Shown: positions 50,133-50,459 of the stretch, piece after piece
How positions within the stretch are numbered: the first letter of the stretch is position 1
Layout: each line of letters starts with the position of its first letter
Assembly (NCBI GenBank): GCA_023395435.1
Contig: JAEWZG010000061.1
Span: 14,296 to 78,295, forward strand
Direction of reading: 5' to 3'
DNA from: Bacillota bacterium
Lineage (GTDB): Bacteria; Bacillota; Clostridia; Oscillospirales; Ruminococcaceae
DNA: 64,000 nt
Translations under genes and position numbers: made by a program
Notes under the pieces: model-generated
What the model was told of the DNA's origin: nothing
Database searches by the model: none
The model's input: the letters and a program-made list of their open reading frames with translations, nothing else

Positions 50133-50459
50133 TCACCTCAATAAATTTGTATTCAAACTATTAGGATTAAAATCGTCAGAACATTCTATATCGTGTAGGT
50201 ATCCATCTGTAAAACTAATTACTTTTCTTATTTCACCCGTCAATTCTGAAATTTCATTCCTTGTCGTTTTACTGAATTTATCGGCGAACAGCTTTAAATT
50301 ATCTGATGTGCATCCCTGAAAGTTATTTGAAGATGCTAACTTATTTATTTCGTCAAAGAAATCTTTGGAACACTTTTCTACTTTATTTGCAATTGCATCC
50401 ATTTTCCTAACCACTAGGGATATTTCTGACGTACTAATTATATAATGTGGACCAAACAT
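50133..50459 (-). CDS. Stand-alone LXG-like N-terminal domain protein
   Basis: 108 aa. IISTSEISLVVRKMDAI...NNFQGCTSDNLKLFADKF...ISFTDGYLHDIECSDDFNPNSL follows the LXG pattern (x-G, K.F/Y, Y..vD). RBS GGAGGGG. Confidence 0.4.
   Translation of the reverse strand: MFGPHYIISTSEISLVVRKMDAIANKVEKCSKDFFDEINKLASSNNFQGCTSDNLKLFADKFSKTTRNEISELTGEIRKVISFTDGYLHDIECSDDFNPNSLNTNLLR

Follow-up and report, generated by a model that had tools for sequence, protein, structure and literature searches.

A predicted helical hairpin gene conserved as a free-standing member of a candidate type VIIb-like toxin-immunity cassette in a gut Bacillota genome

Type VIIb toxins and their small helical partners

[quoted passage not shown] The genes immediately upstream supply small helix-turn-helix proteins, WXG100-like in character, that attach to the helical domain at the N-terminus of the toxin (PMC10801868, PMC10653861, PMC10765036). 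The Tel toxins are served by Lap1/Lap2 or Lap3/Lap4, and in the structure 8GMH the LxG motif of the toxin packs beside the acidic NKxxDD or FxxxD motif of a Lap (PMC10801868). The partners of EsaD are EsxB (104 aa, a bona fide WXG100 protein), EsxC (130 aa), and EsxD (PMC10653861, PMC10765036), and TelE likewise has three upstream partners. The LXG domains themselves are 170-224 aa long (PMC10801868, PMC10653861), and residues 1-170 of EsaD match LXG with an HHpred probability of 98% (PMC10653861). LXG genes are common in Clostridiales and often lie at a distance from the T7SS locus (PMC10765036).

The locus described here lies in a 64-kb window (the whole stretch of DNA that was analyzed, 64,000 nucleotides from a gut Bacillota metagenome-assembled genome). 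The initial annotation had interpreted a 108-aa ORF in this window as an LXG-like targeting segment encoded apart from a 531-aa cargo protein, and it had set this separation against characterized effectors, which it took to carry both parts on one chain. Separately encoded small helical partners are, in fact, the documented norm for type VIIb toxins, with Lap1-4 and the EsxB/C/D proteins of EsaD as examples (PMC10801868, PMC10653861, PMC10765036), and the novelty claim was overstated because such helpers are usual in type VIIb systems.

Structure and conservation of the A-E operon

The 108-aa ORF, gene B, is the second of five tightly packed genes (A to E) that all read in the same direction on the minus strand; 17, 6, 17, and 4 nt separate successive genes, and RBSs are present throughout (Table 1). 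Direct reading of the sequence bore out the description of this ORF in the initial annotation, including its length, its own GGAGGGG RBS, its TGA AAA TAA end, and the peptide motifs I.STSEI, NNFQGCTSDNLKLFADKF, and YLHDIECSDDFNPNSL, all of which are found in the translation. The AAA TAA after the gene B stop codon leads directly into the ATG (50126) of gene C, whose RBS, GAGGTGA, overlaps that stop codon. The order given for the following genes was also correct, with the 94-aa helper next and then the 531-aa protein, the start of which (ATG 49824) matches public gene calls. Neither a signal peptide nor a strongly hydrophobic N-terminus was found in the products of genes A-D, the D protein having one moderately hydrophobic segment (residues 404-427), and the gene E product has one membrane anchor.

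Table 1. Positions of the operon genes, their candidate control elements, and the flanking repeats within the window.
Feature	Position	Strand	Description
Right boundary repeat	51065..51200	+	Same ~70-nt arm as the left repeat plus a 63-nt copy of the tRNA-Leu 3′ end, 62/63 identical
Candidate operon promoter of sigma-70 type (TTGAAA, 17 nt with TG, TATAAT)	50919..50947	-	One strong promoter-like site, a consensus match only (11/12 matches); ~35 nt upstream of gene A
Gene A, 135 aa	50477..50884	-	All-helical, with two long helices and a looser middle; stop codon TAG
RBS of gene B, GGAGGGG	50465..50471	-	5 nt before the ATG; read directly
Gene B, 108 aa	50133..50459	-	ATG 50459, TGA 50135-50133; read directly from the sequence
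Gene C, 94 aa	49842..50126	-	Predicted helical hairpin
Gene D, 531 aa, N-terminal module (codons 1-125)	49450..49824	-	Conserved, helical; ATG 49824
Gene D, codons 126-531	48229..49449	-	Fast-diverging; presumed toxin portion
Gene E, 176 aa	47694..48224	-	N-terminal membrane anchor; presumed immunity protein
Candidate operon terminator, GC-rich hairpin ACCCCACCC ... GGGTGGGGT	47618..47647	-	Downstream of gene E; read directly, not listed by the scan that gave the promoter match
Left boundary repeat	47325..47459	+	~70-nt arm plus a copy of the tRNA-Leu 3′ 62 nt

A tRNA-Leu(taa) gene (38473-38559) is followed by two tandem segments, of which 38560-47459 carries copper-resistance and two-component genes and 47460-51200 carries only the A-E operon. 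The tRNA 3′ copies that end the two segments are 62/63 and ~57/62 identical, no integrase ORF was seen inside either segment, and the public short contigs of the operon end exactly at the boundary repeat. Repeats of the tRNA-Leu 3′ end bound the operon as a discrete islet of 3.7 kb, and the whole arrangement looks like a tandem accretion of integrase-less, att-flanked islands at a tRNA gene. Just outside the islet (51285-52216, minus strand) are two overlapping ORFs of 185 and 131 aa, the former Thr/Ser/Ala-rich, neither of which was matched in Pfam, PHROGs, or PADLOC. At 56233-58305 and 59897-61354 (both minus strand), short ORFs open with the motif that ends RHS cores at the C-terminus (…NPLNLIDPSGH), and small unrelated genes come after them, with an NGO_1070-like immunity gene nearby at 58766-59143 and an RHS_repeat fragment at 60797-61354; the 56233-61354 region has the appearance of an array in which orphan RHS toxin tips and immunity cassettes line up beside a fragmented RHS gene.

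The gene B protein is called identically on 11 public contigs. Its homologues, with 86% identity at one locus (L001) and ~50% at three others (L002-L004), are encoded as separate ORFs in the same gene order, and L001 and L002/L003 preserve the arrangement A-B-C-D with each gene as its own ORF. In global alignments, the products of genes A, B, and C are 86-90% identical to those of L001 and 26-45% identical to those of L002/L003. The Nei-Gojobori dN/dS of gene B is 0.145 versus L001 and 0.47 versus L002, the values across genes A, B, and C range from 0.15 to 0.47, and purifying selection acts on all three genes. Word-indexed searches with B, D, and D(1-200) returned only the protein itself, one 86% relative, and fragments, and a full HMMER search with gene B over 1.84 billion representative proteins added one relative of 51% identity. 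Alignments of B, the D N-terminus, and the D middle region yielded no further relatives in GTDB genomes, JGI metagenomes, or IMG/VR, and a plasmid megablast with the operon island gave nothing useful.

One damaged copy of the operon bears on whether gene B could be a pseudogene fragment, the remnant of a larger gene that was recently disrupted by a nonsense mutation or an indel. This copy, 99% identical and found on a single metagenomic contig (L018; Logan SRR30787006), has a nonsense codon in gene B (Ser44 TCA->TAA, equivalent to window position 50329), and its gene D has lost one nucleotide from a T8 run, which shifts the frame (equivalent to 48961), so the cassette can decay; genes A, C, and E are intact despite the broken B and D. 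The pattern is compatible with gene B mattering only together with D and with retention of immunity. In the three lineages, however, gene B is full length with its own RBS down to ~50% identity, the dN/dS values are those given above, and no locus was found with B fused in frame to C or D. Because the separation is kept in three lineages, the split is not a recent nonsense or indel event, and we rejected this explanation, which is hardly credible for a free-standing gene under purifying selection. Gene B is a real, conserved gene; it looks like one of three small helical helpers of the kind encoded upstream of secreted bacterial toxins, and not like a broken-off toxin piece.

The comparison with L001 also divides gene D. 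From upstream of gene A to D codon ~126, the window and L001 are 90% identical in DNA, and beyond that point the DNA similarity disappears; at the protein level, identity in 25-residue blocks is 76-100% over residues 1-125 and then falls to ~5-50%, typically ~25%. The N-terminal module is helical, with one very long helix (~43-115) in a low-confidence fused model, and it carries an invariant Y41-S-D43 at its predicted turn with I..FY after it; the same N-terminal pattern recurs in L002. There is no x-G at this turn. The view of the initial annotation that the 531-aa protein is cargo separate from the targeting part was not borne out: because a ~125-aa conserved helical N-module precedes the sharp drop in identity, D is not bare cargo. 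Residues ~140-190 contain a block, W..I....(P)..ITD.(E)Y.LL...YLDM, that is common to the three D proteins and matches none of the known families; it may correspond to a linker or to a middle domain bound by a helper. The gene after D in L001 is unrelated in sequence to E, yet its product likewise has an N-terminal membrane anchor. At the sequence level, the locus thus bears the signature of a polymorphic toxin-immunity pair, since the D N-module is conserved, the C-terminal part is divergent, and the downstream membrane protein has been swapped along with it.

An AF2 model of the gene B protein, built on a 3-sequence alignment, has helices at residues 10-43 and 52-91 joined by a turn at 44-51 (SNNFQGCT), with pLDDT values of 70-81 in the core, a mean of 61, and a disordered tail. 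In the alignment of the window, L001, and L002 sequences, F47 and G49 are invariant and lie in the predicted turn. The invariant residues gather at the hairpin tip (EKCS.DFF.E ... SS..F.G.T.DNLK.F.DKF..TT), which is the most conserved part of the protein. The distal Y..D signature noted in the initial annotation is present in the window (Y87..D) but is not kept in L002. Genes A and C are also predicted to encode helical hairpins, according to a low-confidence model of A+B+C+D(1-190) as one fused chain, whose mean pLDDT of 41 makes it useful for secondary structure only and silent on complex formation. The structure models are shallow because the family has so few members, with three lineages found in 1.8 billion representative proteins. 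In gene C, the best-conserved stretch is the C-terminal helix, ending in an invariant IKSF..NM.EAD that includes N79-M-x-E82-A-D84 near the C-terminus.

Family comparisons of the gene B protein and its neighbors

Profile searches at E<=10 gave no match to PF04740 (LXG) for the three gene B homologues or for D and none to PF06013 (WXG100) for gene B. The gene B protein was also without a match to DUF3130, DUF3958, or DUF5344, and neither B nor C matched any of the four Lap families. More broadly, no significant similarity to any T7SS-related family was detected for genes A-E in Pfam, NCBIfam, PHROGs, PADLOC, or the PDB (sequence and profile searches). The PDB searches with gene B returned SEC6 and coiled-coil noise and no T7-related match, and those with A, B, C, the D N-terminus, and the D C-terminal part returned coiled-coil noise; a PP2A match (E 0.003, 45 residues) was taken as spurious. 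Foldseek comparison of the gene B model with the PDB identified generic helices only (designed hairpins and an RNA polymerase coiled coil; best E 0.35). Gene A has a sub-threshold match to the YwqH-like family PF16888: the E value is 0.03 (0.0012 when the L001 homologue is used), and the score, 14.9 bits, falls short of the cut-off, 33.7. We regard this match as a lead and not as evidence, generic coiled-coil matches being equally good.

Further comparisons were made with small profiles of verified family members. The LXG mini-profile was assembled from real LXG toxins of Bacillus and Cytobacillus plasmids that were retrieved with a pseudo-consensus query and verified as PF04740 with E values of 1e-47 to 1e-75; the same query found no matches among phages. 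The WXG100 mini-model comprised four proteins verified with Pfam as PF06013. With hhalign, gene B scored 1.3% against LXG, and B and D scored <=6% against the mini-profiles; these values carry no information, because with such thin profiles the positive control, LXG versus WXG100 (a true superfamily pair), also failed, at 1.0%. With hmmsearch --max, the LXG mini-HMM gave gene B 0.3-3.4 bits, a score matched or exceeded by 2-10% of composition shuffles; the excess is marginal and non-specific, and any helical hairpin may show the same. The WXG100 mini-model gave the gene B homologues an insignificant 2.9-5.1 bits, and its alignments, at only 2.8-4.8 bits, place the FQG/FEG of the window and L001 proteins on WxG; for the L002 protein, only the N-terminal TEEL was aligned, at the (P)EEL position.

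These results leave part of the initial LXG-like assignment standing. What remains is a free-standing predicted hairpin with a hydrophobic-x-Gly turn of the WXG100/LXG superfamily kind. An LXG relationship is not demonstrated, and the closer likeness, if any, appears to be to a stand-alone WXG100-type hairpin. In its model, the gene B protein resembles members of PF06013 (EsxA, YukE, ESAT-6/CFP-10) in size (~100 aa), helix-turn-helix fold, and aromatic-x-Gly turn near residue 45, and its (I/V)I.T.E(I/L) start recalls the I.V.PEEL-like start of WXG100 proteins. It differs in having F-x-G, with Phe in place of Trp, rather than W-x-G, and in that its gene is part of a toxin operon and not of a T7SS core locus. 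An LXG protein, in comparison, has a helical N-terminus of ~170-220 aa on the same chain as the toxin, whereas gene B stands alone in three lineages.

Another explanation would make gene B the detached N-terminal LxG-type hairpin of a split LXG domain, giving in trans the x-G half of the export signal that was lost from the toxin chain. The D N-module is indeed short for an LXG domain (~125 aa versus 170-224 aa) with Y-S-D and not x-G at its turn, the helpers number three where two are usual, and the combined helical mass of 125+135+108+94 aa is close to that of an LXG domain plus two Laps. The invariant F-x-G of B, followed by D..L..F, recalls LKGKGGDAIRAFY of verified LXG domains, but the LXG mini-HMM does not place the FxG of B on LxG, its scores are reached by 2-10% of composition shuffles, and the B homologues have no PF04740 signal. 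The length, start motif, and FxG register of B suit a stand-alone WXG100-type hairpin at least equally well. A hairpin that provides x-G in trans need not be a split LXG domain, because the WxG-bearing EsxB already works in trans beside the LXG-like EsaD (PMC10765036), and no fusion or fission event can be documented because no relative was found with B fused to D. We consider such a split improbable. Since the D N-module is shorter than an LXG domain and without the x-G turn, a similarly small weight is kept for a signal supplied in trans: the targeting domain of D would be cut to a single ~125-aa hairpin and B would supply the aromatic-x-Gly half of a bipartite type VII signal, giving an LXG/WXG domain that is spread over four polypeptides with no detectable relatives. 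That arrangement, or else an export route other than the T7SS, is in our judgment a rather remote prospect.

A working model for the cassette

The arrangement of the five genes is closest to that of the T7SSb nuclease toxin EsaD of Staphylococcus aureus, with its export partners EsxC/B/D and its immunity protein EsaG (PMC10653861, PMC10765036). In both, three small helix-turn-helix genes lie directly upstream of a toxin, or presumed toxin, without a signal peptide, one helper carries the aromatic-x-Gly turn (EsxB there, B here) while the others do not, and an immunity gene is located downstream of the toxin (EsaG there; E, presumed, here). The helpers are 130/104/104 aa in the EsaD system versus 135/108/94 aa here. 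The EsaD partners bind the helical N-terminal domain of their toxin, and by analogy a complex of the same kind may form here. Unlike the EsaD system, the cassette has no detectable sequence similarity to it, an F-x-G instead of a W-x-G, no EsaE-type chaperone gene, and a D N-module of ~125 aa with no PF04740 signal; it is also not beside T7SS core genes, and a role in export is proposed by analogy.

[quoted passage not shown] The context of A, B, and C is of this type: 94-135 aa, directly upstream of D with gaps of 6-17 nt, and syntenic in three lineages. Export of the Tel toxins is signaled by a hydrophobic-x-Gly turn together with an acidic motif at the C-terminus of a partner (FxxxD or NKxxDD), YxxxD/E being a further form of this arm in Lap targeting factors, and gene C ends in the invariant N-M-x-E-A-D, a possible acidic export arm by resemblance only. 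The sub-threshold YwqH-like match of gene A is a further point of likeness. In the Tel systems, the toxin chain itself bears the LxG and is served by two Laps, whereas the x-G here belongs to a 108-aa protein of its own, one of three helpers; moreover, in contrast to the Tel and Lap proteins, no Pfam or NCBIfam membership was obtained for any component of the cassette.

The genomic neighborhood gives some weight to a module unconnected with type VII secretion. No essC, esxA, or essB-like gene is present in the 64-kb window or in the 10 kb past either end, the flanks containing housekeeping genes only, and homology to T7 components is lacking. The operon could then encode a multi-component helical system, pore-forming or at the surface, or a toxin with some other means of export or release; A-C would in that case be structural subunits or chaperones that have no kinship with WXG100 proteins. 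The helical hairpin is a very common fold, and the weak matches of A and C are all of a generic coiled-coil kind; Bacillus_HBL is among them, as is alpha-xenorhabdolysin subunit A, which at E 5e-4 does not come near the cut-off. Such a module would still have to account for the polymorphic toxin-immunity signature of D and its swapped downstream membrane protein and for the lack of a signal peptide in D. Among documented arrangements in Bacillota, we know only of the T7SSb effector module as one that brings together two or three genes for ~100-aa hairpins, a toxin devoid of a signal peptide, and an immunity gene (PMC10765036). We view a non-type VII module as unlikely, though deserving of serious consideration.

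On balance, and with slightly better than even confidence, we favor the reading that A-E is a sequence-orphan analogue of the type VIIb toxin modules, such as EsaD-EsxB/C/D, in which B is a WXG100-like partner. The cassette would be a polymorphic toxin-immunity unit built like a T7SSb effector module. D would be the effector, with its ~125-aa conserved helical N-terminal module serving in targeting and its fast-evolving C-terminal part acting as the toxin, probably on the cell envelope or membrane, and E would be the membrane-anchored immunity protein. A, B, and C would be helix-turn-helix partners that bind the D N-module and build with it an elongated helical shaft that is recognized and exported, B being the WXG100-like member of the trio. 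The F-x-G hairpin tip of B may pack against the C-terminal helix of a partner, for which C, with its NM.EAD end, is the best candidate. The B tip and the C end could together form a composite export signal, on the pattern of known T7 substrates, where WxG/LxG is joined with an acidic export arm.

The cassette leaves the understanding of type VII systems unchanged. If the reading that we favor is true, it adds a further family of sequence orphans, comprising a toxin, its immunity protein, and WXG100-like export partners, from a gut Bacillota metagenome-assembled genome. The packaging of the whole A-E module as an integrase-less, att-flanked 3.7-kb islet at tRNA-Leu is of modest added value. With the aromatic-x-Gly tip carried by a hairpin of its own, next to a toxin whose N-module is unusually short, the cassette could also be useful in working out the minimal export signal. 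The five A-E proteins are invisible to current profile libraries, and their description would help in annotating "hypothetical" cassettes and in cataloguing the diversity of type VII effector modules.
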